This document shows, piece by piece, positions 2,309 to 42,352 of a stretch of DNA of 64,000 nucleotides. Both the position numbers and the translations under genes were made by a program. The DNA is from Dictyostelium discoideum (Eukaryota), in the NCBI GenBank assembly GCA_000004695.1, contig CM000150.2, positions 3,584,001 to 3,648,000 of the forward strand. Direction: 5' to 3'. The notes beneath the pieces are model-generated. The model was given only the letters and a program-made list of their open reading frames with translations. It made no database searches and was not told where the DNA came from. Each line of letters opens with the position of its first letter. The stretch's first letter is position 1.

Positions 2309-2323
2309 TTAGTTTAAATTAAG

Positions 2324-2355
<32 letters not shown>

Positions 2356-4840: not shown

Positions 4841-5094
4841 TTCTTAGATATATTGTTTTTTTTTTTATTCTAGCATAAAAAAAAAAAAAAAAAAAAAATG
4901 AGACCGTTTTGTTTCAGAAAAAAAAAAAAAAAAATTGATTTTTTTGTGTGAAAAAAAAAAATGAATCTATTTTTGCACTAAAATCTAAATTTGGATTTTT
5001 TTAAAAAAAAAACGAACGAATTTTTTTTTTATTGTTTTCGAGCATCTCTGCAAATCTTTTTTAATTTTTTTTTTACGAAACAGTTCTAAAATGT

Positions 5095-5126
<32 letters not shown>

Positions 5127-5159
5127 CTCAAAAAAAAATTATTAAATCACAGAATATGT

Positions 5160-7075
5160 TTTTTTTAAATCATATTTAAATTAATAATATCATTTTTATT
5201 TTTTATTTTATATTGCAATTGTTTCACATTTGGTAGTTACACATTTGATACAAAAAATTGGTCAACAAATTGTGCACTATCATCATGTGTTTTTTATGAA
5301 TTTAATAATAATAATTATTATGATTTAAGTTCTATTGTCCACAATGATCATCAAGGTCCTTACAAAGCAAGTTTTCCTGCCGAACTTCCTGGTGGAATTC
5401 AAACACCTTATACAATGTATTTTAATCCTTGTTTTAATGATAATGTGTGTCCAGGTGGTCTTTCAGTAGGTAAATTCACAAAAAATTCTTAATTCCGTTG
5501 GTTCACTTTCAGAGCCACATTCTATAACATTAAATTCAGAAGGTATTTCTATTGAATATCAATCAGCTCTTTTACCATCAACAACATGTACCTCTAATGG
5601 TAACCGTAGAACTTTGGTTTTATTTATTACTTGTATCCCAACCGAAACATTTAAAATTATTGGTACTTATAACAGAAGAGTATTATGTGAACATACAATT
5701 TATATATCTTCAAAATTAGTTTGTAAAGATAGAGGAATATTATTTAATCAAGGTCTATTTTATGATTTAACACCAATGAAATTGTAAGTTGTTAAATTCT
5801 TTTTTATATTTTTTTTTTATTTCAATTTTTTTTTTTTTTTTGTTTTTAATAAAAAAAAAAAACACCAAACACGAAATTTCAAAATAAAAATAAAAATTAA
5901 AATATCTAACCACTTTTTTTTCAATTTTTTATTTTTTTCTTCCCACAGATTAACAAGCACTTCACACCAAATTACCAACAGTGACCAAACACAAGATATT
6001 CTCTTAATTTATTTGGAAATGTAAATAGATGTGGTACTTTCGGTACATCAACATTAAGTTGTCAATCATGTATTTTAACAGTTGCTAATAAAGCGATCGA
6101 TTATAAACTAGATTCAAGATATGCAACATCACCAAAATCAGTTATGGTAGGATCTCTCAGTCAACCAAGAATTACATTTACAAATGATGGAATAACTATA
6201 ATTTATAGCGCAATAGCAGGCTTCACTGAATGCTCATCAAATGGTAACAAATATTCATCAAAGTATATTTTAATTTGTGATCCATTCACAGAATATTATG
6301 TAGATAAATTTACATTAGAATCACAATGTATTTATCAAATTAAGGTTTATACTAAATACGCATGTCCAACATTACGTTTATTCAAACAAACACAATATTA
6401 TGACCTTTCACCATTGATGTTGTAAGTATTCAATTTATTCTTGTATTTCTTCAAACAGTTATTAATTAATAATAAAATAAATAATAGGGATTCAACAAGA
6501 AATTATACAACAAGTCATATTACAGACGGATATGAGTATAATATTGTATTCAATATTGGTAATAAAGCACAAATGTGTAGCGATGCATTTAATGATTATT
6601 ATTTTGCTTGTCAATATGATCCACGTTATAAAAGTTTTATTCCACTTGCAAAGGCAAGTTTAGGTCAAAGAGTAACATTTGATTTAAATCAAGTTAAATT
6701 CGAATATACTTCACCAATGTCAGGTTGTTTAAGAACTTTTATTATTGTTTTAACTTGTGATGAAAACCAACATTATCAATTAGTTTCAACTTTAGAATCT
6801 CCTGCATGTGTATATACAGTAACAATTAAAACTAAATATGTATGTGAATCAACAATTTATTACAATAGATTCGACTATACATATTATGATATTACTCCAA
6901 TAAAAACGTAAGTTTTAAATTAAATTTGAAATTAAATTTAAATATAAATAATAATAATAATAATATTAATAATCTTTATTGTCAACAACTAAAATATTAA
7001 TTTAATTAGAAAAAAAGATAGTCCAAATAAAATAGATATTGATGTTGGTGGATATCCATATAGAGTAAGTAAATT

Positions 7076-7120
<45 letters not shown>

Positions 7121-10100
7121 AACAAATATTTTTCTAATAGCTTTTTTATGGTATCGGTAATACTGTTGATTATTGCGGAGAACAAGTGGGATCAGTCCCT
7201 GGTGTAGATTATCAAGCTTGTCAATATCTCAGTGGTCTTGTTATTCAAGTCGGTAGTTTAAAAAATACATCAATGATTCTTAATAAGGATGGTATAAGTA
7301 TATATCAAACCTCACCATTCGATTTAACCAAAGTGTGCCAAAATACAAGATATCAAAGAGTAAACATTTTAAATATGGTATGTGATCCAACAGCAACAAA
7401 TGATGTGGTTAGCGCTACTGAGACTGCCAACGATTGGGCATGTGAATATACAATCGAAATTAAAACTAAATATGAATGTTCAATTAATTATGCACCAGTA
7501 TTACCGGTTGTTGGAAATCCATGTTCATACAGTTGTACACCACCAGGTGCTTTAAATCCAAAAGATATAGTTAGTGTACTTTTAAATTTAGGTGTTTGTT
7601 CTCAGAGATTAATAAATATGGTACAGGTGCAATCATTACTTAATATATTTAAAGATACTTGGGTTTCAAATCACAATGGGTATGATGATTGGATGGGTGG
7701 ACAACTTTATTCACTATTATTAACAGGTAAACCACAGTCAACAATTTCACCATATGTTATTTCAATTACACATGATAATTTAAGTACATATGGTACCAAT
7801 GGGTTAAGTAAAGCAAAAAATTCAATCAATGATTTTCTTACTATTACAAATGATCTTCTTGAAATTTCAAATCGTGCAGCCAGTTCAACCGTTACCAAAT
7901 ATACATATTCAGATGGAGCAATTACATAAACTTTTATCAACATCAACTGGAGGTCTTGCAATTATTAAATACAAAAATTTGCTATGCTACTATTCAATAG
8001 TCCCAAATTTACAAACTTTAATTATTGGGAGTTATTTGCTTTCTTGCCCATATTATTCACTACCAACTATACAGTGCACAGTTTAACACCATCAATAGGG
8101 AAAGTTGGAGATACTATCACAATTAATGGTCAAAATTTAGATACAGATATATATGATGTTTATTTCAACATTATTGATGACAACAGTAAAATTAAAGCAA
8201 CAATAACATCAAGAACCGTAAGTTTTGTAAAAGTAATTGTTCCAAATGGTTTTGGTTATGCATTAGTCTACACTCAAAATATACTTAATCCAACTACCTC
8301 TGATAAACTTTCATTTTCATATCCATCACCAGCGATTGTCAAAGTAATTAGTCAACCATTTAGTACAGATATCATCAATAGATTCTTTGTTATTGGTCAA
8401 AACCATCGTTCTTTAATAACCAATATTGTTATTAATCCATACATCGATAATATTGAAAAAGAAGCAATTTATTGTGAAATTGTTGTCGGTAAACAAGCGT
8501 CAAAGACTATATATCCAAGTGATTTAGATGAAAATCCAACAAATTATAATTTATATTATTATCCCCCAGCAGTTGTTGACATATCAGAAGTTTCAACTGA
8601 TGGTGGTGAAGTTATAATAAAAGGTACAAATTTTATTCCAGCCTCGCTTAAAGATCAAATTAATAATCAACCAATAATCGGTTCACCACATTCAGTAGAG
8701 TTTAATAATGTTTTATCTTCATCATGGACATGGATTGATTCAACACATGTAGAAGCCATCGTACAAAAAGGTATTGGTACAATCTCTACAATTGTAAATG
8801 TTGGTGGTCAAAGATCTGATTTAAATCCAATTCCTGTAAATTTTTACAAAAGACCTGAACTAGATAATAAAAAATATGAAAACTTTGCAAATAGTGATAT
8901 TTTAATAACTGGTTCTAATTTTGTGCCAGTTGGTTTTTCAGCAGGTTCATCAAGTTCTGTCAAAATTGGAGGTATTCCCTGTAACTCTGTAACATGGGTA
9001 GATTCAAAATCTGTTATTTGTAATGTGCCAATTGGAACTGGTGATAATTTAAATATCATCAAAAAACCGAATTAAATGATTATTTCTCATATTTAGGGCA
9101 ATGCGATTTCCTCTGTAGCGATTTATCAAATTTAGTAAGTTTTTAAACATTTTAATTACAGAAAAAAAAAAAAAAACTAAAAAATACTAATTTATTATCA
9201 TTTTTATCTCAAAGGAATTAGCAAAAGTTATTAGAGAGAATAAAAAAGATTTAAAGAGTACTCTTTTATTAACAGGTGTATGTTTAGAACAAATCGAGCA
9301 ATATAATTTCACAGATATTAATGATGAAATTGAATCAAGTTGGATTGAAAACTCAATTATTAATGATTGGACAAGTGGTAAATTCTATAATTATTTTAAA
9401 TCATCAGAATCATACTCAACAGTTAAAACACTTGCAAAATATATTACTCCAAAGAATCCATGTATTTATGATAATAAAAGAGTAAAGAATTCATTAGATT
9501 ACCATTTTGAAATCAATTCAGATATTTTCCATTTAATTGAACTTTCAATTTCATCAAAAATCAGTTATCCAGATTCACCATATGAAACTTATTTCTATGA
9601 ATCATCAAGCAACCCAGAGTATGGTCTTTCAATTATTACATTTGATTCAGCAATTTGTAGCTTTACAGAATCAACTATTCAAGACTATCAAAGTGGAAAA
9701 GAATTACAATCATGTTCAATCATTCCAATTATAAATCAAGTAATTAATCCAACAACAACACTTCAAGCACCATATCAATATTCACTTACAATTATTGGTA
9801 GATTATTTGATAGTTCAACTAGAATATTTTTATCAGGTTATGAATGTCCAATCATTGGTAATATCGCTACTAATCAAAATGATTATATTCAAACTCTTAG
9901 TTGTTCAGTACCACCAGAAATCGAATCATACTCGCCCTCTCAAATTAGTTTTTACAATGATTATAGTGAAAATAATATATAGAATATGAAGATGGATCTG
10001 ATGAAATTGTTGTTAAATTTAATAATGAACCAACAGCTATCATTGAAAACACAGAAACATACATTAAAATTAAAACCCTTAGTGGTGATGAATTTAATGT

Positions 10101-11487
10101 ACCAATTGCTGTAGAATTAAACGGTCAAATAAGTAATACAGATACTTCATTCGTTTACTCAAATCCAATAATTGAAAGTGTAACACCATCATCAAGTAGC
10201 TCAAAATCAAATACTAATATCATCATTAAAGGACAAAATCTTGGATATTTAACAAACACTCCCAAAATTACAATTGGAAGTAGTAATTGTTTAAATATCA
10301 AAACTATATCTCCAAATGAAATTCATCGTTATGAAATCAAGCGCAGGCACTAAACAATTAACATTAACCTATGAAAGTTATCAACCAACCTATTCACAAT
10401 TCACTCACAAAAACGATGATGACAGTGATAGCCACGATGATGATGATGATGACCATAAAAACAATAATGGACCAAAAAACACCATATTAAGTATTCTTGG
10501 AGGTATAATTGGAGCAGCAGCATCAGCGGCCGTAAGTGGATTTATAACAAGCATTTTCGGTGGTGCGACATCAGTAGCTACAGCAGCAGCAACAGCAACA
10601 GCTATTGCCGGTGCAATTACCGAAGGTGTTGCAGTGGCCTTTACAGGGGTATCAGTAATAGCAGCAACAGCAGGTGGTATTGTTATTACTTCAATTGTAA
10701 CAGCAACAGCCATCCTTATTTCAGGTGGAAGTACACAATCACCAAACCCAACGCCAACCGATAACTATTGGGTAAGATGTATGGTCGATTATTCAAGATT
10801 AACTTTACAAGTCGATAATCTTTACGGTCAAGATATAGTATGGATTGATGGTAATGGAATTTCATCAATTTTCAAAGAATCATTCTCTTGTAAACCTGAC
10901 CTTATTAACGATGGTATGATATGCACTCAACAACATCAAAATGGAACAAATTCAACAACCACATTTGGTAATTCAACATTAATTTGTCATATTGACCCAA
11001 CAAAATCATGTGAAATTTCACCACCATTCATCATACCATCCGATCCAATTGAAGATGATGAATATTCAAATATTTTAGAATGTCAATATAATCTCATTGA
11101 AAATTCATTATCAACACACTCTAATAATAGTCCATTAAGATGTTATAATAATGAAACTGAAAATTACTTCACTATGAATACTACACTTTCATGCTCAAAA
11201 GATGAATCATTAAGTCAAGATAAATATACGATTTCTTGTTTATCAGATACAGATGATACCCAAATCTTTTTCTATAAGAACTCAATTACATGCATTACAG
11301 ATTATCCATACTATAAATGTACAATAAAAATTAGTTAACGACTGGAACTAATGCTGAATGTCCAAAAAATGAAAAAGAACTTCATTATGATCTTTCAACT
11401 TCTCTAACATGCACAGATTATATCACACTTAAAAACTCCACTTATTCAATTTCATATTCAAATTACATTTGCATTAAAACAAAATAA
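5160..11487 (+). pseudogene. Decayed copy A of the giant MRH-lectin/IPT-TIG gene, with multiple frameshifts and a roughly 3.1-kb internal deletion
   Basis: Aligns exon by exon to copy B (15415..25732). Exon 1 has a roughly 20-bp deletion near 5460 and a degraded start. Exon 2 carries 1-bp and 3-bp deletions. The exon-5 equivalent has -1/-2 compensating indels near 7600, a 10-bp deletion at 7927 (frame break at ORF 7186..7929) and a roughly 23-bp deletion at 9060. At about 9980 the sequence jumps from the copy B position 20900 to 24035, so most TIG repeats of the last exon are lost. The tail has a further deletion. ORF fragments 6144..6425, 6441..6911, 7186..7929, 7984..9075 and 10316..11338 sit in different frames. 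Confidence 0.7.
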
Positions 11488-11849
11488 AAACAATTAAAAA
11501 ATTTTAAAAAACAAAATGATATAATAATTTAATGAAATAATTTAATTACTATTTTTACTATTTTTATTTTCGAAAAACTGTAATTAAATTATTTCATTAA
11601 ATCATTATGTCACACCACCCAAAATTCAATTCTGAAAACTTTTTTTTTTATTTAATTACCCTTAATAAAAAATTAAATGTGAAAATAAATGTTATATTTA
11701 TTTTAGTATTGTTTTTTTTTTTTATTTCTTAGTGCACCATTTGGTTTTATCTAATTTTGAAAACTAAAAAAAAAAAAAAAATTTATTTTTGGAATTAGTT
11801 AAATTTAAAAAAAAATAAATTTTTGGGATAGTTAAATTTAAAAAAAAAT

Positions 11850-13990
11850 TTAAATTAAAATATAATTAATACTTACATCTTTGGTATATTCACCCAAAAC
11901 TTTTGTAAATTCCTCAATGGAATTGATGTTTTGTAGATCACCATGTTTATTTTCAGTTAAGAGAATACAATAGATAAGATGATCTTGGCAATCTGGATGA
12001 TAATTAATGATTTTTGAGTCTGTATCACTTGGATAAGCTTTACATATTTTTTTATTAATTTCATTGTAATCCTTATCATCATGACCTTCTTCGCTATCAC
12101 TTTGATCGCCTTCGATTTTATTTGGGAATTTAAATGGTTCTAAATCATCTTTGATTTTAACTTCTTTCAATTGAATGATGTTTTCATTTTTAATAAATTT
12201 CAATTTTTTATAAAGTTCTTTTACTAAATCAATATTTTTTAAATCGATATATATCTTATCTGGGAAAGGTGCGAGTATTGATGTTGGTTCGATAACGGTA
12301 TTTTGTGTTATAGCAGTTATCGTTTCTTTACCATCTTTATTTTTTGATGAGGTAACTGTTAATGTTGATTCAACATAGATATCTTTAAACAATTGGTAAG
12401 ATTTGGATTTTTCAAAGCTACAAGTGACATCATCATTATCATCACATAAAATAATTTCCCCATTGATTGATGGAAACACATTGAAATCGAATAACTCTGA
12501 TTTGTATTCATTTGTAGTTTGATCCTTAAGTTGAGTTAATAATGGAATGTAAACATTGTCATAACCATAGTTATATTCATTTGAAAATAATTTATCTTCA
12601 TCTTTTTCATTATTGTAAACGATAATAAATGGATTCAAATGATAGTATTTTTCATCATCTCCATAACCTTTAACCTTGGTTTCAAAGTCTAACTTTCTGT
12701 TACCTAAAATTTTATTTAGATCCTTTGGATATTTAGCTATTAATCCGTTTAAATTCAACTTTTGACCTGCAATGCTATTTAATCTTAATGATTCTTTTTT
12801 AAGATATTGATTATTCTCTGGGTGTCTAATTATACCAACTCTTCTATAAAAGTATTCAGAAAGATATTTCATTTTATCACTGCAAAAAGCACCACCTCCA
12901 CGTGACTCTTGCTTTCCTTGCCAATTTAAATCACCAAAGCAAATAGTCCCACCACCGCCACCGCTATCTACTTTATCTATATTATTGAATTGATAAGAAA
13001 TTTTTGAATGGTCACTTCCTGAATCAGCACTAATAACTTTTGACCAAGGTGTTTCGAATCTGTAAGAAAGATAAATTGATTCAACTGCTTGAGAAATTGC
13101 ATTTTCACCTTTTGTAATCTTTGTTTGAGTATGGACCATTGTTTTAAAATTATTACCATTTTTAAAATTATCTATATAATGCCAAATTATAAAAAATTTA
13201 ATTTTTTCCTTGTGAGTTTCTTCAATTTTTTCATTATACTTTTTATAAAGGTTTTTATTTGTTGTTTGAATGAAGTAATCCCCTTTATTTTTACTCTCAT
13301 AAATTTTATTATAGTGAACATTTGTTTCTTTAGGTTTTAGAGTTAAATCTGATGATGTAATATCTTCGTTTAGAATTAATTTTGCCTATTTTAAGAATGT
13401 AAGTATGATGATTTATTAACACAAATTTATAATTAAAATTACTTACCAATTGTGACCATTTATTTAAATAAATAATTCCATTCCATATATCAGGATCACC
13501 ATCATTCTTTTTTTTAACCAAAATATAATCACTCATTAGACCATCCAATTTTTTAAAAGTTTTGGGAATTTCTTTTGCTAAATTTTCAATTACATCCAAA
13601 TTAATGACTCCTGGGCTTATCTTTTCAACCTCTGTATGGAGATTTTCGGAATAAAGATTGGCTGATGATACCTTTTTAGCCTTTTTACCAAGTCCTGTTG
13701 AAACTGTATTAATGGTTTGAATATTTAAATTACTATAAATAATATACTTTGGAATAATATGAAGTTCTTCTTTTGACAAAGTTATACAAATTGAATGTTG
13801 AGCATGTTGATTATTTAAAGTATCTTTGTCGTAATTAAAAAGAGGTTCATATCCTGTTTCTGGAGATTTTGGAACACTGTGAATTACATGAATTCCCCCT
13901 TCTTCATTCCAAATGAAAAATCCTTTTGCATGTGCCTTTTTTAAATAAATAAATTAAAAAAAAAAAATATGTTAACAAATAATGATAACC

Positions 13991-14021
<31 letters not shown>

Positions 14022-14413
14022 AAATAATAAACACAAACACTATCGGAACCACCACTGATCTGATCATTATAAGTCAAACTATTATATATAATTTTTTTAG
14101 ATTCATTTGGTAAACTCTGTTTGTATGTTGATGTAATAGGGTTTGGTTCTTTTGGATCTCTAATATTATAATTTGCAATTTCATTTATCTCTGAACTTCC
14201 TCCTTTTAATGTGTTATCAGTATAAATAGAACCTTTACTGTGACCTAATTGTTCTAAAAACCACCATTCGACATTCTTTTCTATTGTAACCCCATCCCCA
14301 AATACTTGACCATCCTTGTAAATATTTTTTGTTGTTATACATTTTGGAGGAACACAATAAATATGTGATATTAATACAAATAAATATAGAAAAATAATAT
14401 ATTTATTTCTCAT
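11850..14413 (-). CDS. DNase II-family secreted protein, copy B; exons 14413..14039, 13935..13447, 13385..11850
   Basis: Same three-exon structure as copy A. MRNKYIIFLYLFVLISHIYC signal peptide; AHAKGFFIWNEEGGIHVIHSVP; DHSKISYQF...ICFGDLNWQGKQESRGGGAFC; C-terminal extension ends ...EYTKDVSINYILI. Exon 1 donor is GTTTGT, shared with copy C. Frames checked by arithmetic (375, 489 and 1536 nt). Confidence 0.75.
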
Positions 14414-14483
14414 TTTCTTAAGTCTAATGTTATAATGTTTCAATTTTTTAATGGTATAAAAAAAAATTGGGTGTGTTTTTGCG

Positions 14484-14514
<31 letters not shown>

Positions 14515-14879
14515 GCTTTGTTGTCAACAAAGAAAAAAACCTAAAATTGGATCATTTAAAATAAAATAAAAAAACGAACGAAAATATTTTTTTTTAATCG
14601 TTTTTAGATGATTTTCCCACTTCTTTGATTATTGAAAATCTTTTAAATATTTTAGATTTTTTTTTTTATTTTTTTCGACCCATTATTTAATAAAAAAAAA
14701 AAATTATAAAAATTACCCCCACAAACCGTTTAGTTTTTTTTTTTTTTTCACAAAGCCTGGTTTTTATTTTTTTTGACACTTTTTAGCTTTGCATCTTTAT
14801 CGCTTTAAATACGTAAAATACAACATTTTTTTTAAAAAAAAAAAAAAAGTATGGTTAAAAAAAAAAAAAAATCATACTG

Positions 14880-15075
14880 AAATTAAAAAAAAAATGGTAA
14901 AATTTAAAATAGTTATATCATTTTTATTATTTATTTTATATTTTAATTGTTTCACATTTGGTAGTCATGTGTTTTTTATATTAATACAAATAAATATAAA
15001 AAAATAATATATTTATTTCTCATTTAAATTTTTTAATGGTAAAAAAATTGGGTGTTTTTTGTGAAAAAAAAAAAA
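14880..15075. other. Rearrangement scar: partial tandem duplication of the bidirectional promoter region, fusing 72 bp of the giant-gene start (MVKFKIVISFLLFILYFNCFTFGS) to the inverted DNase II start region
   Basis: 14893..14964 repeats the exon 1 start found at 15415. The sequence then continues as 'tcatgtgttttttatattaatacaaataaatataaaaaaataatatatttatttctcat', which is the reverse complement of the DNase II-B start and upstream region (14370..14540). The motif 'aaacgaacgaaaat...aatcgtttttagatgatttt' occurs at both about 14565..14650 and 15155..15240. The chimeric ORF 14789..15007 comes from this scar. Confidence 0.6.
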
Positions 15076-15414
15076 AAATAGCCTTTTTGTGAAAAAAAAA
15101 GAAAAAAAAAAATCTAAAATTGGATCATTGAAAAAATAAAATAAAAAACGAACGAAAATTTTTTTTTAATCGTTTTTAGATGATTTTTCCACTCCTTTTA
15201 TTATTGAATCTTTTTGAACATTTTTCTACCGCTTGGTTTTTTTTTTTTTTACAAAGCTTTGCTAGTTTTTATTTTTTTTTTACACTTTTTAGCTTTGCAT
15301 CTTTAAAACTTTAAAATACGTTTTGGAAAATACTATATTTTTTTTTTTCAATCAACCACACTCTTTTTTTTTTTTTTTTTAAAAAAAATAATCATATTGA
15401 AATTAAAAAAAAAA

Positions 15415-29015: not shown

Positions 29016-29524
29016 AAAAAAAAAAAATTACAATCGATTTGCATCAAAATCAAAATTTTAATCTTAAAAAAAAACAAAAAATTATTTTCCTAATGTTTTT
29101 TTGATTTTAAAGAGATAATTTTTCTTTCTTTTTTTTTCAAAATGCAAACTAAAAAAATTTTCGTTTGTTTTTTTTTTTTTTATATCACAAAATATCGAAC
29201 GGGCACGAGCAAAAAAAAAGCAAGGAGGTGTCTCGAAAAAAAAAATTGTGTTGAGAAATGCAACAATTTTTTTTATTGGTACCCATTACTTCATTAGCAT
29301 CAAGTCCACTTCTCCATACGATAAAAAAAAAAAAAAAAAAAAAAAAAAGGGATCGCTAATTTTTAAAAGAGAAAAAAGTGTTGTTGCTCCACTAAAAAAA
29401 TAAATATATTTTTTTTTTAGAAAAAGATGGTACTTGTTTTGTGAATGAAAATTTTTTTTTTTCTTTTTTTTTTTTTATTTTTTTTTTTTTTTATTTTTTT
29501 TTTTTTGATCATTTTTTTTTAACA

Positions 29525-31579
29525 ATGGAAATAAACTTTTGGAAATTTTATAGAAACAAATATTTGAATAAAATTATATATTCAAATTTTGAATTTTCAA
29601 ATATTTATTCATATGATAGATTATATAATGTTTCAGAAATTTTATCTAAATATACAAATGGTATTGAAATTTTAAAAGATAAAGTCAAAAATAATCAATA
29701 TTTATTTTTTGAAATTAAAATTACAGGTATTATTAGAGAAACATTCCCAAATTTGATCTTAGAGCTAATTAAAAAGGATGAACTATTTTATAATCAATTA
29801 TTTGGTAATAATGAATATTATTCAAAAAACTTTAATCTTAATGAATTATTTATTAAAATTATTCAATCATCAAATTTAGTAGCATTAAAATCATTTATCA
29901 AATTAATATATAAAAAAAACAAAAATAAAATTAATAAATTTAATGATAATTTTAAAGTTTTTAATTATAAAAGTTTAAAAATGTTGAAATATATAATAAC
30001 GATTGGTGGTGATAAACTATTAAAGAATTTAGAATATGGTGATATAGAATTGTTTAATAACTCTTTTAAATTAAAACATTTAATTGAAATTTTAAAATTT
30101 TCTTCACAAACAATGTCAAGCAATAATCAAATAAACAAAGAAATATTAGAATCTAATTTATTTACAAATCAATTAAAAAAATTGTCAATTAATGAAATTT
30201 TAGAAGAATATTCATCAATTTTAAATAATAACCAACAACCAGAAATTAAATTTAAAATATTAGAACTAATTAATTTATTTTATTTAATAATTAATAAAAA
30301 TGAAAATGAAAAACCATTAAATTATTATATTTTATTTAAAAATGAAAATGAAATTGAAAATAAAATTTATCAAGATTATCAACAACAAGAACCGCAACAA
30401 AGACAGTATGGATGTTTTTTTAATTTATTTAAATATAAATCTGAGAAATTAAATCAACTAATTTCAAATTTATTAAAAAGGATTGAACTAAATCCAAATT
30501 CAAATGAAACTACAAGTAAAAGACAAGAGATTGAATATTTAATTAATTCATTTATTTTATCAAGTAATAATATTGAATTGTTAGATAAAGTTATTAAAGA
30601 AAACAATTCAATAAATTTTTATGAAAAATATAAATCAATTACATTTTCAAGAATACTATCAATTGAAATTTTAAATTATTTTTTTGAAAATTATCAAGAT
30701 TTATTTTTTAATGATTTAAATTTGAATTGGGTTAATATTGAATCAATTAAAGTATTTAAACATTATAAATTATTAATGAAAAGTTTAAATAGAAATTTAT
30801 CAATTATCATTAATGATAGTAATCATCAAATTGAATTAATACCAAATCAATTTAAAACAGTTTCAACAAATTTTAAAAAACCAGGTGAATTATTTTTAGA
30901 TTTATTATTAAATTATAATAATAATCATCTTAAAGAAATACCTAATTTGGATTTATTTAAGGAATTAATATATAATTCATTAAATTATTATAATAAGCAA
31001 GATTCATTTATTGAAATTTTAAAAACATTTAAAATTAAATCATCTTCTTTTGATTTTTCATTAATTGAAAATGAAAATCATAATAATTATAAAATTATTA
31101 AATGGTTATTTTCAAAAACACCAACAACATTTAATGAATTTAAAAATTCAAAAAAGGAAATTATAATTAACCAAAATTTAAAAATTAATTCAATTAATAA
31201 TGAACAATTATTTATTTCATTATTTAAAATTGGTTATTATAAAAAAATATTTCAATTATTAGATAATAATCAAATTTCAAGAATGAATATAATTAATTTT
31301 CATTTTCCTGGTAATTCAATAGATACAAAATATTATATTAAATATATTACAGTTGAATATATTGATTATTTATTTAATTTTATTTTTAATAAAAAAATTG
31401 AAATTATGCAGCTTGGTTGTCATTCTAAAAAATTTAATTGGGAAACCTTTATAAATGAAATAATGAGAAATGGTGATTTATTAATTTTTAAACATTTAAT
31501 TAAAAATTATGGTGGTTCATTTATTATTAATTCTCAATTATTTAATTTGGAATTTAAAGAATTTTATAAAAATAAATAA
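29525..31579 (+). CDS. Hypothetical Asn/Lys/Ile-rich protein of about 685 aa (ORF track 29441..31579; likely start MEINFWKFY at about 29525); unknown function
   Basis: A 2.1-kb uninterrupted ORF in a genome where TAA stops are frequent by chance. It has no counterpart in the intergenic spacers of copies A or B. No motif recognised. Confidence 0.5.
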   Translation: MEINFWKFYRNKYLNKIIYSNFEFSNIYSYDRLYNVSEILSKYTNGIEILKDKVKNNQYLFFEIKITGIIRETFPNLILELIKKDELFYNQLFGNNEYYSKNFNLNELFIKIIQSSNLVALKSFIKLIYKKNKNKINKFNDNFKVFNYKSLKMLKYIITIGGDKLLKNLEYGDIELFNNSFKLKHLIEILKFSSQTMSSNNQINKEILESNLFTNQLKKLSINEILEEYSSILNNNQQPEIKFKILELINLFYLIINKNENEKPLNYYILFKNENEIENKIYQDYQQQEPQQRQYGCFFNLFKYKSEKLNQLISNLLKRIELNPNSNETTSKRQEIEYLINSFILSSNNIELLDKVIKENNSINFYEKYKSITFSRILSIEILNYFFENYQDLFFNDLNLNWVNIESIKVFKHYKLLMKSLNRNLSIIINDSNHQIELIPNQFKTVSTNFKKPGELFLDLLLNYNNNHLKEIPNLDLFKELIYNSLNYYNKQDSFIEILKTFKIKSSSFDFSLIENENHNNYKIIKWLFSKTPTTFNEFKNSKKEIIINQNLKINSINNEQLFISLFKIGYYKKIFQLLDNNQISRMNIINFHFPGNSIDTKYYIKYITVEYIDYLFNFIFNKKIEIMQLGCHSKKFNWETFINEIMRNGDLLIFKHLIKNYGGSFIINSQLFNLEFKEFYKNK

Positions 31580-31753
31580 AAATAAAAAAAACTAATAATT
31601 TAAAAAAAAAAAAAAAAAACTTAAATCAATTGACAAATATAACCCAATTAGAATGAAGTTAAGGAAAATTTTTAAAAATGGAAATTGCTTTTTTTTTTTT
31701 TTTTTTTTTTAATTTTATTTTAATTTTTTAACATCCAACAGTCTTAAAAATTT

Positions 31754-32036
31754 TTTTATAGAAAATTACGAGTATGTCGTAATAAAAACTAAAAAACATC
31801 AAAATTATTTTTTTTTTTTAGATGCGATCATTTGTTGATGTTGGAAATCTTTTTTTCATTTTCGAAATGGTTTTTCTGTGAAAATAAAAAAAAAAAAAAA
31901 AAAATCCAACTCAGAAACCTTTTCTTATTGGCGAGTTTAAAAAAAAAAAACTGCCAAACGATCGCATCTAAAAAAAAAAGATAAGTTTGATGTTTTTTAG
32001 TTTTTATTACGACATACTCGTAATTTTCTATAAAAA
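31754..32036. repeat. Inverted repeat: roughly 77-bp arms (outer 47 bp perfect) around a roughly 130-bp spacer; foldback/MITE-like element or inverted duplication of the promoter-proximal motif
   Basis: 31756..31802 'tatagaaaattacgagtatgtcgtaataaaaactaaaaaacatcaaa' is exactly reverse-complementary to 31990..32036. The inner parts, ...tagatgcgatc at 31819..31829 and gatcgcatcta at 31960..31970, are also complementary. The element ends about 110 bp upstream of the giant gene C ATG. Confidence 0.8.
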
Positions 32037-32146
32037 AATTTTGATAAAAATCTTACTATTATTTTTTTTTTTTTTTTTTTTTTTAAAAATAAAAGAGAAT
32101 TAATTGTTTATGAAAAATTACGTTGTAAAAAAAAAAAAAAAAAAAA

Positions 32147-35100
32147 ATGGTAAAATTTAAAATAGTGATATCATTTTTATTATTTATTATATATTGTAAT
32201 TGTTTCACATTTGGTAGCTACCCATTTGATACAAAAAATTGGTCAACAAATGGTACACTATCATCATGTGTTTTTTATGATTTTGTAAATAACGATTATT
32301 ATGATTTAAGTTCTATTATCATACCTGATCATCAAGGTTCTCATAGAGCAAGTTTTGATGCAGAACTTTCTGGTGGAATTCAAACATCTTATTTAATGTA
32401 TTTCAATCCTTGTTTTAATGATCATATGTGTCCAGGTGGTCTTTCAGTAGGTTGTATTGCTATTTTTCAAAATTCGCAAACAATATATAATTCTGTTGGT
32501 TCACTTTCAGAACCACATTTTGTTACATATAGAACAAACGGTATTACTATTAAATATCAATCAACTCTTTTACCATCAACAACATGTGCCTCTAATGGTA
32601 ACCGTAGAACTTTGATTTTAGTTATTACTTGTGATCCAATTCAACAATTTTCAGTAACAAGTACTAATAACAGAAGAGTATTATGTGAACATACAATTAA
32701 TATCGCTTCAAGACTAGTATGTAAAAATAAAGGAGTATTATTTAATCAAGGTCTATTTTATGATTTAACACCAATGAAATTGTAAGTTATTAAATTCTTT
32801 TTCATATTTTTAATTATCCATTTTTTTATTTTTATTTTTTATTTTTATTTTTATTTTTATTTCCCACTTTTTTCAATTCATTTTTTTTAATTTTTTTTTT
32901 TTTTTTTAATTTTTTTTTTTTCCAATAGATTAACAAGCACTTCACACCAAATCACCAATGATGACCAAACAAAAGATATTCTCTTTAATTTATTCGGAAA
33001 TGTAAATAGATGTGGTACTTTCGGTACATCAACATTAAGTTATCAATCATGTATTTTAACAGTTGCTAATAAAGCGATCATTATAAACTAGATTCAAGAT
33101 ATGCAACATCACCAAAATCAGTTATGGTAGGATCTCTCAGTCAACCAAGAACAATTACATTTACAAATGATGTAATAACTATACTTTATAGTTCAACAAC
33201 TGGTTTCACAGAATGCTCATTAAACGGTAACAAATATTCATCAAAGTATATTTTAATTTGTGATCCATTCACAGAATATTATGTAGATAAATTTACATTA
33301 GAATCACAATGTATTTATCAAATAAAAGTTTATACCAAATACGCATGTCCAACATTACGTTTATTCAAACGACAAATACAATATTATGACCTTTCACCAT
33401 TGATGTTGTAAGTATTAAATTTAGTTTTTTAATATTTTATTTATCGTGCCCCTCCTCTAAATAATTAACAATTCGGTAAATCTATATATATAGAGATTCA
33501 ACAAGAAATTATACTGCAAGTTATAGTACAGGAGAAATTATATTTAATATTGGTAATAGAGCACAAATTTGTAACGAACCCTTGAATGGTACAATTTTTC
33601 ATTTTGCTTGTCAATACGATCCAATCAATAGAGTATACAATCAAATCGCTCAAGCAAGTTTAGGTCAAAAGGTAACATATGATTTAAATCAAATTAAATT
33701 TGAATACTCTTCAAGACTAACAACTAGTTGCTCATCAAATTCCAATAAAAGAAATTTTATTATTGTTTTAAATTGTGACGAAAATCAACATTACCAATTG
33801 GTTTCAACTATTGAATCTCCTGCATGTGTATATACAGTAACAATTAAAACTAAATATGTATGCGAATCAACAATTTATTTTAATGCATTTAACTATACCT
33901 ATTATGATATTACTCCAATAAAAACGTAAGTTTAAAGTAATAATAACTAGGTAATAATAGTAAAAATAATATTGATTTTTATTAACAAACACAATATATC
34001 AAACTATTAATTTTAATTAGAACAAAAGATAGTCCAAAAACAGTGGATATCACTGTCAGTGGAGTCACAAATAGAGTAAGAATTTAACTTTTAAAAAAAA
34101 AAACTAAAACTAAAACTAACATATTTATTTATTATTTTTTTAAATAGCTTTATTATGGTATAGGTAATACTGTTAACTTTTGTACAAATCAAGCTACAGC
34201 AGTTCCTGGTGTAGATTATCAAGCTTGCCAATATATCAATGGTGTTGTTATTCATGTTGGTAGTTTAAAAAATACTTCTATATATATTGGTGATAGTAAT
34301 GATATATATATCGCTCATACATCAGTAACTGATTCAACTAGACCACCATGTAGAGGTAAATATCAAAGGGCTGACATTTTAAGTATGACATGTGATCCAA
34401 CGGCTACATACACTTTTGTCAGTGCCAAAGAGGTTTCTTCTAACGGGGGATGTCATTATTATATTTACATTAAAACCAAATATGCATGCCCAATTAATTA
34501 TGCACCAGTATTGCCAGCTGTTGGAAATCCATGTTTATACAGTTGTACACCACCAGGTGCTTTAAATACAAAAGATATAGTTAGTGTACTTTTAAATTTA
34601 GGCGTTTGTTTTTCAGAGATTAATAAATATGGTACAGGTGCTCAATCATTACTTGGTATATTCAACAATACTTGGGTTTTAAACCACAATGGATATGATG
34701 ATTGGATGGGTGGACAACTTTATTCACTATTATTAACAGGTAAACCACAAACATCGATTTCACCATATGTTATTTCAATTACACATGATAATTTATGTAC
34801 ATATGGTACCAATGGGTTAAGTAAAGCAAAAAATTCAATCAATGATTTTCTCACTATCACAAATGATCTTCTTGAAATTTCAAATCGTGCAGCCAGTTCA
34901 ACCGTTACCAAATATACATATTCAGATGGAGCAATTACATTATCAACACATAAACTTTTATCAACATCAACTGGAGGTCTTGCAATTATTATGTATAAAG
35001 GCTTGCTATGCCATTACTCAGTGGTTTCAAATATTCAAACTTTAGTTATTTCGAATTATTTGCTTTCATGTCCATATTATTCACTACCAATTACATTGTA

Positions 35101-38100
35101 TAGTTTAGCACCATCAACTGCGAAAATCGGAGATACTATTACAATTAATGGTGAAAATCTAGATAAAGACAACTATGATGTTTATTTTAAAATCATTCAA
35201 GATTCATATTCTGAAGTCAAAGCAACAATAACATCAAGAACAGCAAATACTGTAAAAGTAATCGTTCCAAAAGGTTTTGGTGGTGCCTTTGTTCTCACTC
35301 AAAATAGAATCAATAAGTTAATCTCTAATAATCTTGAATTTTCATACCCATCATCAACCATTGTCAAAGTAATTAGTCAACCATTTAGTACAGGTATCAT
35401 CAATAGATTCTTTGTCATTGGTGAATATTATCGTTCATTAATAACCAATATCACCATTTATCCATACATCGATAATATTGAAAAAGAAGCAATTTATTGT
35501 GAAATTGAAAAGTATTGTCCAAGTTCATCAAAAATTCCATCAATTCCAGGATCAGAAGTAGGTCATCCATGTATTGATTCAACAGTTTACTCTGAGAATG
35601 CCCAGTTTTTCAATTATTCCAAGTATGATGTTTTTGTTTGTATCAAATCATCATTAGGTGTTGGAAGTGGTATCATTAAATTCCCATCACAAACATTTAC
35701 ATTCGCATACTCTTATAAAGCACCTCTCTTATATTATGCACCACCTGGCGCTCGTATTCCAACTGATGGTGGTAGTTTTCAATTGAGTGGCAAAAACTTT
35801 CCACCAACACAAGAAATCATTGATCTCGGTTTGAACACATCTAAAATCATTTGGAATAATGATAATTTTGTTACATTCAAAGGAACAAATCTTACAAATA
35901 CCAACATCAATTGGAAGAGTTCAGATACGATTGTATTTATTGCGCCACCAGGTTTTGGTGAGTGGATCACCGTTTCAGTAACTGTCGGTAAACAAGCGTC
36001 AACAACTACATACCCAGGTGATTTAGATGAACGTCCAACTGGAAATTATACTTTGCATTATCTATTTCCAACAATTGTTGATTTATCAGCAGTTCCAACT
36101 GATGGTGGTGAAACTATAATAAAAGGTGCCAACTTTATTCCAGCTATCTTTGTAGGTCAAATTAATAATCAATCATTAATTGGTTCGCTACATTCAGTCA
36201 CGTTTAATAATGTTTTATCTCCATCATGGACATGGATTAACTCAACACACGTAAAAGCCATCGTACAAAAAGGTATTGGTACAATCTCTCCAATGGTAAG
36301 AGTTGGTGGTCAAAGATCAGATTTGTACCAACTTTTTGCAACATTATACAAAAAACCTGAATTAGATAATAAAAAATATGAAAACTTTGCAAATAGTAAT
36401 ATTTTAATAACTGGCTCTAATTTTGTACCAGTTGGTGTTTCAGCAGGTTCATCAAGTTCTGTTAAAATTGGAGGTATTCCTTGTAACTCTGTAACATGGG
36501 TAGATTCAAAATCTGTTATTTGTAATGTACCAATTGGAACTGGTGATAATTTAAATATCCAAGTAACAGTTGGAGATCAACAAACCGAATTAAATGATTA
36601 TTTCTCATATTTAGGGCAATGCGATTTCCTCTGTAGCGATTTATCAAATTTAGTAAGTTTTTAAACATTTTAATTACAGAGAAAAAAAGAAAAAAAAAAC
36701 TAAAAAATACTAATATATTATCATTTTTACCTCAAAGGAATTAGAAAAAGTTATTAGAGAGAATAAAAAAGATTTAAAGAGTACTCTTTTATTAACAGGC
36801 GTATGTTTAGAACAAATCAAGCAATATAATCTTACATATATTAAAAATAAAATTGAATCAAGTTGGATTGGAAATTCAATTATTAATGATTGGACAAGTG
36901 GTAAATTCTATAACTATTTCAAATCATCAGAATCATACTCAACAGTTAAAACACTTGCAAAATATATTACTCCAAAGAATCCATGTATTTATGATAATAA
37001 AAGAGTAAAGAATTCATTAGATTACCTTTTCGAAATCAATTCAGATATTTTCCATTTAATTGAACTTTCAATTTCATCAAAAATCAGTTATCCAGATTCG
37101 CCATATCAAACTTATTTCTATAAATCATCAAGTAACCCACAGTATGGTCTTTCAATTATTACATTTGATTCAGCAATTTGTAGCTTTACAGAATCAACTA
37201 TTCAAGACTACCAAAGTGGAAAAGTATTACAATCATGTTCAATCATTCCAATTATAAATCAAGTAATTAATCCAACAACAACACTTCAAGCACCATATCA
37301 ATATTCACTTACAATTATTGGTAGATTATTTGATAGTTCAACTAGAATATTTTTATCAGGTTATGAATGTCCAATCATTGGTAATATTGTTACAAATCAA
37401 AATGATTATATTCAAACTCTTAGTTGTTCAGTACCATCAGAAATCAAATCATACTCAGCCTCTCCAATTAGTTTTTACAATGGTTATAGTGAAAATAATA
37501 TATATAATTTCTTGTTGGATTTTAAAAAATCATTCTTTTTTATATATCCAATTTCAACAGTAACTCAAATTCAATACCCATCAAGTGGTCCAATTCAAAT
37601 GAATTCTGAAATTAAAGTAATTGGTTTTAATTTCTTCCCATATGGTATTACAAATCCAAACCTTAAAGTTTTTATTGATGATCTTGAATTAACTGATACT
37701 ATCTTTGGATTAACAAGCATAAATGGAGTTGATTCATTTTCATTTATTGCTTCTGGTTTAGGTTCTTTAAAGTATGTAAAAAAAAAAAAAATTAAAAAAA
37801 AAATTAAATTAAATTATTAATATATAAATTTCTTTTTAAAAGTTACATTCAATTATTTTATAGTAATAGTTTACCAATGATTATAAAAAATGGTGTTAAA
37901 TTAGAATTTTCATTTGAAAGACCAATTATTAATAGTATATTACCAACAAATGGAGATTACAATACAAAAGTTACAATTAATGGTAATAATTTTAGAAAAG
38001 GTCAATCAGTAAAAATTGGAGACTTATTAGTAAATGATATTGAATTCATTTCAAATCAAAAGATTATTGTTTCAGCACCATTTGGATTTATTAATGGACT

Positions 38101-41100
38101 TGTAGTTGTTTATTCAGATGATCAATACAGTTTAGAAGAAATATCATTTAGTTATCCTTCACCAATTATAGACCAAGTCATTCTTTCAAATTATGAATCA
38201 AAATTAAACACAACAGGTACAAATTATTTCACAGTAATAGGTAGAGGTTTAGGTACATACATTGCAGAACAAGTCGATATTATTATTAACCAAGAGTTTT
38301 ATGCAAGTTGCGAATTCGATTTCTGTGAAAGTTTAGAAATTATTGAAGATATAGATATAAAAGATCAAGGAATTTGTCAATATTTAAAATATAAAAATTA
38401 TCAATATATCAATGAAAACTTTGATATATTAAATTGTATTTTAGCTGATTCAATTGGTAAAGATAAATCAATCAGTATCAAAATTTCAGAATTCCAAAAC
38501 CAAACTTTCACCTACTCTTATTATGAACCATGGATTGAAAAACTAACACAAAACTCTTCATCAGCAACAACTGATGGTGGTGAAGTAATCGTTATAAATG
38601 GTTACAACTTTTTACCATTCGAAAATTTAAGTCCATACTATGAAAACAATGAAACTATTGCACAATGGTTAAATCAATCAGAAATATTAATTGGTGAAAG
38701 CTATCTTTGTCAATCAATTAATTGGACCAATTCCTATGAATTAAATTGTACAATCCCACCGGGAATTGGTGTTAATCATACAATCATTGTAAAAGTAGGC
38801 CTTCAATCATCAAATCATACTGATTATTTGTATTCTTACAATCCACCAAAACTTGATACAATCAATAATTCCACCAAAAATGAGACACATTACTATTCTT
38901 CAACAGATGGTAACAATGAAATTATAATAACAGGTAATAACTTTATTCCAAAAGAGTTATCAGATCATTACAACCAGAATGAAAATAAAACTATAAATTC
39001 AATACTATTAGGTAAACAATATTGTAATGAAACTATTTGGATTAATTCAACAATAGTTAAATGTAAACCATTAGCAGGTATTGGGTCAAATTACAAAATA
39101 ATCATTAAAGTTGGCAATCAAAATTCAAACGAAACCGTTTACTTCTCATATGAGAAGCCAATTTTAGATTTAAAGAATTACACAGGTTCAACAAATGGTA
39201 ATACTGAAATTACAATAACAGGTATCAACTTTATTCCAAAACAATTAGCAGATAATAATAATTTCAATCAATCAGAGAACTATATAATGATTGGTGATAA
39301 TAAATGTAATGGAATTATTTGGATCAATTCAAGAACAGTTAAATGTAAACCAATATCAGGTACTGGTACCAATCATAGAGTTATCATAACAGTTGGTAAT
39401 CAAAACTCAAATGAAACGGTCTACTTTTCATATGATAAACCAATTTTAGATATTAAAAACTATAGTAGTCCAACTGATGGCAATACTGAAATCACAATAA
39501 CAGGTGAAAACTTTATCCAAAACTATAATCAAGAAAAACATAATGAAAATGATAATTTCGTTAGAATCGGTGAAAATAAATGTAATGAAACAAAGTGGAT
39601 AAATTCGACAACAATTAAATGTAAAATAATTCAAGGTATTGGTTTAGATTATAAAATAGTTGTAACAGTCGCCAATCAACAATCAAATGAAAATGTTTTC
39701 TTTTCATATGAAAAACCAATGATTGACAGTAAAACACTATTAGCATCAACCAGTGGCAGTGAAACTATTAAAATTACAGGTACCAATTTCATTCCATCAA
39801 TTTTAGTAGAACATTACAACAATATAAAAAATAAAAATAACTCAATAAATTCAGTTACTATCAATAACGAGTTTTGTAATGATATTGCATGGATTAACTC
39901 AACAGAACTAACATGTAAACCATTAGCAGGAGTTGGAACTAATCATACCATATTCATTTTAGTTGGAACTCAAAAATCAAATCAAGTAAAATCATTCTCA
40001 TATAAACCTCCAAAGATTGAAGAGTTTAAATACTACACAGCACCAACACATTCCAATAAAATTATTACTATAACTGGTGAAAACTTTATTCCAATCGAAT
40101 TATTATCAAAAGACAACAGCAATAGTTCAGTACTTATTGATAATATAAAATGTGAAGAAATCAAATGGATTGATTCTACAAAAGTTTCATGTCAAGTTCC
40201 AGTAGGTCAAGGTAAAGATTTATCGATTAAAGTTAAAATTGAAAATCAAGAAACTGAAGAAAATCAACAATTTTCATATGATAAACCATTTATTCAATCA
40301 ATCAATCCAAATAAAGGAAGATGTAATCAAGAAGTATTAATTACAATTCAAGGTGATAGTTTTGGAAAGAGTGATCAACTAATTAAAATTGGTAATAACG
40401 AATGTCAAGATATTCAATTCTATCCAAATCATACATTTACATGTAAAGTTCCAATCGTGGAGAATTCAATTAAATCCATTGTTTTATTAAATGTTGGAAA
40501 TCAAGATTCAAACGATAACATTACATATAAATACTATGGACCACCAGAAATTAAAAGTATTGGTTTACCATCATATCTTTCATTCAAAGGTGATGATTTA
40601 ATAACAATCATTGGTAATAACTTTATAGAATATGATGATGGATCTGATGAAATTGTTGTTAAATTTAATAATGAACCAACAGCTATCATTGAAAAAACAG
40701 AAACATCTATTAAAATTAAAACTCTTAGTGGTGATGAATTTAATTTACCAATTGCTGTAGAATTAAATGGTCAAATAAGTAATATCGATACTTCATTCGT
40801 TTACTCAAATCCAATAATTGAAAGTGTAACACCATCATCAAGTAGCTCAAAATCAAATACTCATATCATCATTAAAGGACATAATCTTGGATACTTAACA
40901 AACACTCCCAAAATTACAATTGGAAGTAGCAATTGTTTAAATATCAATACTATATCTCCAAATGAAGTTCGTTGTATAGTGTTGAAATCAAGCGCAGGCG
41001 CCAAACAATTAACATTAACCTATAAAAGTTATCAACCAACCTATTCACAATTCACTCATGATGATGACAGTGATAGCCACGATGACAGTGGAAGCCATGA

Positions 41101-42352
41101 TCATAATGATCCTAATGGACCAAAAGATACTATAATAGGTATTATCGGAAGTGCAATTGGAGTATCAGTATCAGGAGTCTTGGCTGGATTAATACCAACT
41201 ATTTTCGGTAATGGAACATCAGTAGCCACTACGGCCGCAACAACAAGGGCGGTAGATACAGCGGTAGCGGCAGCAACTACAGCAGCAACAGCAACAGCCA
41301 TTGCCAGTGCAACGATCGAAGGTGTTGCTGTAGTCGTTACAAGGGTATCAGTAATAGCAGCAACAGCAGGTGGTGTTATCGTTACTGCAATTGTAACAGC
41401 AACAGCCATTCTTATTTCAGGTGGAAGTACACCATCACCAACCCCAACCATAACTCCAACCATAACTCCAACCATAACTCCAACTATTTCACCAACTCCA
41501 ACACCAACCGATAACTATTGGGTAAGATGTATGGTCGATTATTCAAGATTAGCTTTACAAGTCGATAATCTTTACGGTCAAGATATAGTATGTATTGATG
41601 GTAATGGAATTTCATCAATTTTCAACGAATCATTCTCTTGTAAACCTGATCTTATTAACGATGGTATGATATGTGCTCAACAACATCAAGATGGAACAAA
41701 TTCAACAACCACATTTGGTAATTCAACATTAATTTGTCATATTGACCCAACAAAATCATGTGAAATTTCACCACCATTCATCATACCATCCGATCCAATT
41801 GAAGATGATGAATATTCAAATATTTTAGAATGTCAATATAATCTCATTGAAAATTCATTATCAACACACTCTAATAATAGTCCATTAAGATGTTATAATA
41901 ATGAAACTGAAAATTACTTCATTATGAATACTACACTTTCATGCTCAAAAGATGAATCATTAAGTCAAGATAAAGATACGATTTCTTGTTTATCAGATAC
42001 AGATGATACTCAAATCTTTTTCTTTAAGAACTCAATTACATGCATTACAGATTATCCATACTATAAATGTACAATGAAATCTCAATCATCACCAGATGAT
42101 AACATAATTCCAGAACCAACATTACCACCAACTCCATCAATTGATGATGATTCCACATGTATTTATGATTCAGCCAATCCATATTCAATAGATCTCCAAC
42201 CAACAACTGGAACTAATGTCAAATGTCCAACAAATGAAAAAGAACTTCATTATGATCTTTCAACTTATCTAACATGCACGGATAATATCACCCATAAAAA
42301 CTCCACCTATTCAATTTCTTACTCAACTTATGTTTGTATTAAAACTAAATAA
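32147..42352 (+). CDS. Giant MRH-lectin/IPT-TIG glycoprotein, copy C; exons 32147..32781, 32929..33407, 33494..33925, 34021..34075, 34148..36652, 36738..37771, 37864..42352. Exon 2 carries a 1-bp deletion, so this copy may be a pseudogene or require exon skipping
   Basis: Same seven-exon structure and splice phases as copy B. Exon 2 lacks a G between 33079 and 33080 (gcgatcattat versus gcgatcgattat in copies A and B). This gives an in-frame TAG in the B-like frame, and ORF 33124..33411 is in the shifted frame. Exons 3 and 5 N-terminal lectin regions are diverged from B. Exons 6 and 7 are near-identical to B apart from a longer Pro/Thr linker (3 extra TPTI units) and a variant Asp/His stretch. 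Confidence 0.5.

Follow-up and report, generated by a model that had tools for sequence, protein, structure and literature searches.

A 64 kb window of Dictyostelium discoideum DNA (by which we mean the whole stretch that was analysed) contains three tandem units, in each of which a minus-strand gene of the DNase II family, here called the nuclease, lies head-to-head with a plus-strand gene for a very large protein with P-type lectin and IPT/TIG domains, here called the giant gene. The window comes from chromosome 1 of strain AX4, and its first minus-strand spliced gene model is 100% identical to DDB_G0270642. Delimiting the repeat units by self-BLASTN of the window placed them at 2221–∼11550 (unit A), 11643–∼25800 (unit B) and 26175–42373 (unit C). 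Units B and C share 87–91% DNA identity, and unit A is 79–93% identical to the other two; the giant gene of unit A is short by ∼0.5 kb and ∼3.1 kb, and the spacer of unit C carries a 3.2 kb insertion. Most of the window has a G+C content (GC) of 16–32%, and genes were modelled with a splice-aware dynamic-programming gene finder trained on the long open reading frames (ORFs) of the window, which recovered the NCBI protein P0007 exactly. All three nuclease genes are intact, as is one of the three giant genes (that of unit B). The features are collected in Table 1.

A preliminary description of this stretch had proposed three tandem units with divergent genes, decay of some of the copies and intergenic spacers of 0.3, 0.9 and 3.3 kb. 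Self-BLASTN and the gene models bear this out: the unit boundaries and the spacer sizes were essentially right, the genes diverge in all three units, and the giant gene is a pseudogene in unit A and carries a 1 bp frameshift in unit C. Of the limits 2309 and 42352 that had been given for the locus, the second is indeed the stop of the unit C giant gene, whereas the first is the end of a long ORF that holds most of the third exon of nuclease A, a gene whose small last exon extends it to 2238. The spacer of unit C cannot simply be called shared, as had been proposed, because an unrelated plus-strand ORF lies inside it. An assembly artefact was considered as the origin of the triplication and is ruled out, because the nuclease paralogues differ by 13–30% in protein sequence and because near-identical proteins are annotated in the independent ACTFIT assembly, from a strain very close to AX4 (100% identity for nuclease A, 99.8% for nuclease B to ACTFIT_007548 and 97–99% for nuclease C to ACTFIT_007547). 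The order of the tags ACTFIT 007548, 007547, 007562 and 007563 (P0002, P0005, P0032 and P0033) is not obviously that of the genes in the window.

Pfam DNase_II (PF03265) matches the minus-strand exons in all three units and is present in 30 of 30 relatives of the nuclease. The spliced nuclease B scores 135.9 bits against this family (cut-off 23) and covers profile positions 7–324 of 326. The three genes have four exons each, and each product has a signal peptide, two HxK motifs and a C-terminal extension of ∼300 amino acids (aa), but lacks TIG domains and, apart from the signal sequence, any membrane segment. HxK motifs are the catalytic signature of the phospholipase D superfamily, which includes DNase II; here they read A-H126-A-K128-G and H417-S-K419 and are invariant in 27 family sequences, down to 28% identity with DDB_G0270642. 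These features predict that the nucleases are secreted-type members of the DNase II branch of this superfamily, and that they are probably enzymatically active since both catalytic motifs are conserved. Fold comparison found a match to the DNase II/phospholipase D fold; a search of the PDB by sequence with a profile of the nuclease family gave no match. Proteins of the family are 750–830 aa long, with an insertion and a β-rich/helical extension of ∼300 aa at the C-terminus, for which the fold comparison returned no structural match. The extension is specific to these long DNase II-like proteins, which form a dictyostelid-restricted family. At least four to five type-1 nuclease copies are found in the AX4/ACTFIT background, and types 2 and 3 occur in strains of the D. 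discoideum group. AX4 has at least one nuclease family member beyond the window, DDB_G0270848, and since further nuclease and giant copies occur elsewhere in the AX4-type genome, the three units do not make up the whole family. Type-1 nuclease or giant copies outside the window are DDB_G0270848 (P0013), ACTFIT_007952, ACTFIT_000930, ACTFIT_007376 and ACTFIT_007972, and at least one extra-window copy is on the same contig as the window.

The giant gene of unit B aligns end to end, over residues 1–3198, with the independently annotated wild-strain protein ACTFIZ_008384 (91.6% identity and four gap positions). Its signal sequence is followed by four repeats of ∼145 residues, each opening with a 'YYDLSP'-type motif. 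Across 11 aligned domains four cysteines never vary (C44, C55, C110 and C139), and a fifth, C127, is kept in at least 90%. Two MRH-type Pfam families score above cut-off on giant B (ATG27, 31.3 bits, cut-off 27; PRKCSH_1, 29.1 bits, cut-off 23), and a HMMER profile of the 11 domains matches bovine CI-MPR with an E value of 1e-45, the best stretches being domains 3, 9 and 5, followed by ERLEC1 (3e-4), CD-MPR (4e-3) and GII-beta (4e-3). In the HMMER alignment the columns of the Q-R-E-Y tetrad coincide with Q/R/E/Y of CI-MPR domain 3. The tetrad is complete in lectin domains 3 and 4 of the unit B and unit C giants and in domain 3 of a ∼30%-diverged paralogue (L002); domains 1 and 2 are degenerate and do not have the complete tetrad. 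Two of the four lectin domains thus look competent to bind sugar. Beyond them, Pfam TIG (PF01833) matches ORFs of the plus strand: giant B has 10 + 3 such stretches, and the full-length wild-strain orthologue has 13. The domain assignments of the preliminary description (DNase II, four P-type lectin domains and many IPT/TIG repeats) are therefore all sound. Neither the ∼190 aa X module, present in two copies, nor the Cys-rich C-terminal domain matched a Pfam family, and conservation of the latter extends to the relatives in L002 and D. dimigraforme. An acidic stretch lies between the second TIG array and the hydrophobic region, in which a Kyte–Doolittle scan predicts two membrane-spanning segments (residues ∼2799–2832 and ∼2864–2902). 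The predicted product is a giant membrane glycoprotein that carries four lectin domains on a stalk of two X modules and at least 13 TIG domains.

The giant gene of unit C is broken by a 1 bp deletion after position 33079, inside lectin domain 2, which means either that the gene has recently become a pseudogene or that the reference sequence is wrong here. That of unit A has lost residues ∼987–1143 and ∼1632–2631 relative to giant B, and is annotated as two proteins, P0033 and P0032, in the near-identical strain; no protein for giant B or C turned up in the ACTFIT annotation of this AX4-like strain. Word-indexed homology searches with the giant-gene ORFs gave almost nothing useful (four and five matches, with no AX4 entry), so an exhaustive HMMER search with the lectin and X region was needed. 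Run against 1.84 billion representative proteins, it gave 17 matches to the giant family; eight have an organism name, of which seven are dictyostelid and one is a Rhizomastix transcript. The matches are named only automatically, for example as 'MRH domain-containing protein'. Giant B is thus a gene for a 3,198 aa protein that was not found among the annotated AX4 proteins in these searches.

Table 1. Coordinates of the paired genes, their parts and the spacers in the 64 kb window
Feature	Position	Strand	Description
Unit A nuclease, DDB_G0270642	2235–4840	−	782 aa, intact; signal peptide, AHAKG and DHSK motifs, C-terminal extension
Nuclease A coding exons	4840–4469, 4369–3878, 3817–2384, 2285–2238 + stop codon	−	
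Unit A divergent spacer	4841–5169		329 bp, 16% GC
Unit A giant pseudogene	5170–11484	+	Start codon lost, at least four in-frame stops, several frameshifts
Unit B nuclease	11722–14413	−	804 aa, intact; spliced gene model
Nuclease B coding exons	14413–14039, 13935–13447, 13385–11877, 11763–11725 + stop codon	−	
Unit B spacer	14414–15414		1001 bp; internal tandem duplication of promoter and 5′ region
Unit B giant gene	15415–25732	+	3,198 aa, 7 exons, intact
Giant B introns	16050–16233, 16711–16794, 17233–17371, 17427–17569, 20066–20144, 21179–21270	+	
Giant B, four CI-MPR-like P-type lectin (MRH) domains	15529–17914	+	Residues 39–194, 199–354, 358–498, 504–650
Giant B, X1 module	17945–18514	+	∼190 aa, α+β
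Giant B, two IPT/TIG arrays	18527–20065, 20961–24460	+	At least 13 domains in total, X2 between; second array longer
Giant B, X2 module	20154–20729	+	Second copy, between the two TIG arrays
Giant B, hydrophobic Ala/Thr/Gly-rich region	24530–24841	+	∼100 residues; Kyte–Doolittle scan
Giant B, Pro/Thr linker then Cys-rich C-terminal domain	24842–25732	+	∼300 aa, many N-glycosylation sequons
Unit C nuclease	26258–28888	−	792 aa, intact; coding 28888–26261; spliced gene model
Unit C spacer	28889–32146		3258 bp; enlarged by inserted segment with unrelated ORF
ORF in unit C spacer	29522–31579	+	685 aa; unrelated
Unit C giant gene	32147–42352	+	Colinear with B, 91% DNA identity, frameshifted

Dictyostelium places mannose 6-phosphate methyl esters on secreted and lysosomal enzymes, and we know of no endogenous P-type lectin reading this modification that has been characterised in the organism, nor did the searches made here turn one up. 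The locus offers candidate readers, namely CI-MPR-like domains with an intact tetrad, each adjoining a plausible glycoprotein client. The giant protein could be imagined as an intracellular receptor of the mannose 6-phosphate receptor type, sorting the nuclease, or methylphosphomannosylated hydrolases generally, from the Golgi to the lysosome; the CI-MPR-like lectin domains with their intact binding tetrad and the membership of the nuclease in a lysosomal-type enzyme family would agree with this. The far end of the protein seems not to. On inspection no cytosolic sorting tail is apparent past the hydrophobic segments, and the region that is found there is probably lumenal or extracellular rather than cytosolic, because it is Cys-rich and full of N-glycosylation sequons. 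A stalk with 13 TIG domains in a 3,198 aa protein is typical of surface adhesins, and the variable copy number and frequent pseudogenization described below would be unusual for a core trafficking receptor. Moreover, Cardelli (1990), as cited in PMC11795075, reported that lysosomal sorting in Dictyostelium does not depend on these modifications of the glycans. We consider a sorting receptor to be very unlikely.

The head-to-head arrangement is not confined to the window. In the wild strain ACTFIZ an 802 aa nuclease gene lies head-to-head, at ∼500 bp, with an intact giant gene for 3,198 aa, and in strain ACTFIR a single nuclease gene, beside the same Afi1-domain flanking gene as in AX4, faces a split giant gene. 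A 51%-identical nuclease gene in D. dimigraforme is paired in the same way with what is left of a truncated giant gene. Two further lineages show the same layout: a DDB_G0291033-type nuclease (locus L002; 29–32% identical) lies ∼510 bp head-to-head with a gene for 2,462 aa that is homologous to the giant across its lectin, X, TIG and C-terminal parts, and the nuclease ACTFIZ_010631 (locus L009; 33% identical) lies ∼630 bp head-to-head with a lectin/TIG gene for 4,314 aa. The three nuclease lineages have ∼30% mutual identity and are separated from each other as widely as from the members in D. purpureum, and the spacers are ∼500–630 bp in L002, L006, L007 and L009.

Not every locus keeps both partners. 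Two nuclease loci of D. purpureum (L003 and L005) and a three-gene nuclease array of D. firmibasis (L004) have no giant gene as neighbour. The opposite is seen at the D. firmibasis locus syntenic with the window (L008), where giant genes are present and the 28 kb covered contain no nuclease. At L008 (24455–28391) one of the giant genes, of the lectin/TIG type, is annotated as 6,307 residues, beside rearranged pieces of other copies. The pairing thus recurs and is of long standing, being present in three deep lineages, yet it can be lost, as at the D. purpureum and D. firmibasis loci. These losses would fit a reading without functional coupling, in which two fast-evolving families of secreted and surface proteins happened to be adjacent in an ancestor, were copied together by segmental duplication and stayed adjacent by inertia. 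Independent decay of the partners agrees with this explanation, nuclease A being intact beside a dead giant gene, and the three copies in the window are not independent observations, because the duplication units always contain both genes. Chance adjacency accounts less well for the retention of the arrangement, its orientation and its short spacer in three lineages at ∼30% identity, despite heavy rearrangement, deletion and insertion in the region. We regard the absence of coupling as a serious alternative that is nevertheless on the unlikely side. The argument from preserved pairing to functional coupling, as it had been put forward, is thus strengthened by the two further ∼30%-identical lineages and by the wild strains, but the pairing is not obligate, since partners have been lost or have decayed.

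The spacers themselves have been rearranged. In unit B, self-BLASTN pairs 14725–14965 with 15228–15486 and 14368–14674 with 14978–15250; this duplication of the bidirectional promoter and 5′ region has left in the spacer a dead signal-peptide exon of the giant gene (ORF 14789–15007) and, at 14978–15250, a second nuclease 5′ end. A search for conserved blocks in the spacers was swamped by matches of poly-A/T runs. The ORF in the unit C spacer matched no Pfam family and has the motif 'FWKFYRNKYL' near its N-terminus. Relatives of this ORF lie directly downstream of DNase II-like genes (L005, 15004–15282; L003, 15561–16129; L001, 16253–16582), in D. purpureum (two loci) and D. dimigraforme, which are loci whose nuclease has no intact giant partner. 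From its position, the ORF may be a third recurrent neighbour of the nuclease family.

The nuclease genes are diverging rapidly, except for a catalytic core that is conserved. Among the paralogues the ratio of nonsynonymous (dN) to synonymous (dS) divergence is 0.5–0.9 overall and exceeds 1 in several 60-codon windows, but it is just 0.08–0.18 around the second HxK motif. The giant genes of units B and C, compared over the intervals in Table 1, show blocks with dS ∼ 0, mostly in the 3′ two-thirds, that alternate with blocks with dS 0.2–0.48 (lectin domains 3–4, the first TIG array and the membrane region); this alternation indicates a mosaic produced by gene conversion between the two. Copy number appears to differ between strains, with one type-1 nuclease protein recovered from ACTFIR and three each from ACTFIZ and the window, the strain loci being covered in part. 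Polymorphism was compared for the one strain pair with flanking sequence, AX4 and ACTFIR. For the Afi1-domain gene in the flank, dN is 0.0075 and dS 0.086, and the nuclease, for which the closest AX4 copy was used and orthology is uncertain, has dN 0.06 and dS 0.10. For this pair of strains, and with the same uncertainty over orthology, the dN of the nuclease is thus eightfold that of the flanking gene at equal dS. As dS equals that of the flank, the excess protein divergence reflects a high dN/dS and not old balanced alleles.

Such dynamics bring to mind a polymorphic recognition or greenbeard locus like tgrB1/tgrC1, as the preliminary description had suggested, with the giant TIG protein serving recognition and the nuclease acting as an effector on non-kin. 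The IPT/TIG ectodomain, the head-to-head pair, the strain differences in copy number, the dN/dS values and the gene-conversion mosaic would all suit a locus of this kind, and elsewhere DNase II-like proteins are secreted toxins or effectors, as in plancitoxin and the Trichinella expansion (PMC4148230). The likeness in architecture stands, but the TIG protein is only one of the two partners, a second TIG partner being absent, and the single strain comparison shows no sign of ancient balanced alleles. Overall dN/dS is below 1, and no immunity or partner gene is evident. AX4 shows normal tgr-dependent kin recognition with two of its three giant genes in the window broken. We judge a recognition locus to be unlikely.

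We tentatively favour, at somewhat less than even chances, a co-regulated module: the giant surface protein would use its lectin domains to take hold of the secreted nuclease by the N-glycan that the enzyme carries, and so display or route it at the cell surface or at a phagocytic interface. In such a module the shared spacer, AT-rich and 0.3–1 kb long, would drive co-expression of the two genes, and the nuclease, on entering the secretory pathway, would gain N-glycans of the high-mannose or methylphosphomannosyl type. Capture by the giant's lectin domains would then concentrate or display the enzyme at the cell surface or the phagocytic/endolysosomal interface, where it could digest foreign DNA of prey, biofilm or competitors. 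One intact giant protein, that of unit B, could serve nucleases A, B and C in trans. Capture is plausible because the lectin domains look sugar-competent and resemble the mannose 6-phosphate-binding domains 3, 5 and 9 of CI-MPR, and because D. discoideum makes methylphosphomannose glycans and the three nucleases share a conserved N-glycosylation sequon at N102–106. These glycans are made through a biochemically proven GlcNAc-1-phosphotransferase (PMC11795075). A further reason is that the N-terminal sugar-binding site of mammalian CI-MPR recognizes Dictyostelium lysosomal enzymes, according to the work of Marron-Terada (2000) as it is cited in PMC7481795. As far as sequence can speak to it, the data are in keeping with the lectin acting as a receptor for the nuclease, and the head-to-head pair with a spacer of 0.3–0.6 kb in three deep lineages (the window, L002 and L009) speaks for the module.

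Several observations weigh against capture. The loci that have lost one partner, and the intact nuclease A beside its dead giant gene, have been described above, and adjacency can persist by inertia when a pair duplicates as a block. Each nuclease has only one to three N-glycosylation sequons. Axenic growth can dispense with the system, given that the laboratory strain AX4 has only one unbroken giant gene among the three. Co-expression of the pair and binding of the nuclease by the lectin domains are pure inference. The molecular identities are secure, and it is the function alone that we infer. Fast evolution, copy-number change, gene-conversion mosaicism and frequent pseudogenization fit conflict with other organisms rather than a housekeeping role. 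A bolder version of the capture reading, which we consider quite unlikely, would have the giant proteins read methylphosphomannose glycans and so tether the co-expressed nuclease on a surface stalk, making the pair a eukaryotic two-gene counterpart of the contact-dependent nuclease weapons of bacteria or a DNA-digesting feeding device, diversifying under conflict with prey or rival amoebae.

The preliminary description had not recognized this pairing from the literature, and our full-text and supplement searches, using the gene identifiers and DNase II or MRH in Dictyostelium, likewise found no description of the genes or of the pairing. The wild-strain assemblies used here apparently come from a recent multi-genome tgr study (PMC12745789), in whose main text these genes go unmentioned. 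The locus would be a second divergent, fast-evolving and copy-number-variable surface-gene pair in the organism of tgrB1/tgrC1, here with an enzyme as one partner. If the pairing is merely historical, the locus still contributes to annotation: a gene for a 3,198 aa protein, revised pseudogene assignments and long DNase II-like proteins that form a family restricted to dictyostelids.

Elsewhere in the window, long period-3 simple repeats occur at 17242–17373, 11–104, 45433–45588 and 50345–50654; they are common to intron 3 of giant B, the Afi1-domain gene, a WD40 gene and an FNIP gene, and many of the off-diagonal self-BLAST matches arise because these repeats are shared. The stretch 54000–60000, with a GC of up to 41% and pronounced skew in both GC and AT, is probably a retrotransposon, since it contains a reverse-transcriptase ORF at 56332–57360 on the minus strand, and it is flanked by FNIP-repeat genes at 47591–49444 and 49884–51911.

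Among known systems, CI-MPR resembles the giant protein in its tandem ∼145 aa repeats, its Cys pattern, the 'YDLSPL' start of the repeats and the tetrad, which is found in two of the four giant repeats. It differs in having fifteen repeats rather than four, and the giant protein has its repeats fused to IPT/TIG arrays and no recognizable cytosolic sorting tail. DNase II, plancitoxin-1 and the Trichinella spiralis family (PMC4148230) share with the nucleases the fold, both HxK motifs and the signal peptide, and the plancitoxin-1 and Trichinella families (PMC4148230) also share the lineage-specific multigene expansion; the nucleases of the window are about twice as long, with the insertion and the ∼300 aa extension, and are paired with a lectin/TIG gene. 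The polymorphic toxins CdiA and Rhs likewise combine a long repetitive surface stalk with a nuclease and show rapid diversification and copy-number change. Unlike in those toxins, the nuclease here is not fused to the filament but is encoded by a separate, divergently transcribed gene, and no small conserved ORF that could be an immunity gene of this type follows the nuclease in units A or B. A parallel in gene arrangement is tgrB1/tgrC1, also a divergent pair with a short shared spacer and an IPT/TIG membrane protein, and also subject to rapid evolution, duplication, pseudogenization and strain variation (PMC12745789). The pair in the window differs from it in having a secreted-type nuclease in place of the second TIG protein and in showing no sign of old balanced alleles at the nuclease (AX4 versus ACTFIR). 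Tgr proteins are ∼900 aa long; the giant protein is several times larger and has lectin domains. Each component of the locus thus comes from a known family, and divergent pairs of fast-evolving surface genes are known in D. discoideum; the combination and its recurrence are new.

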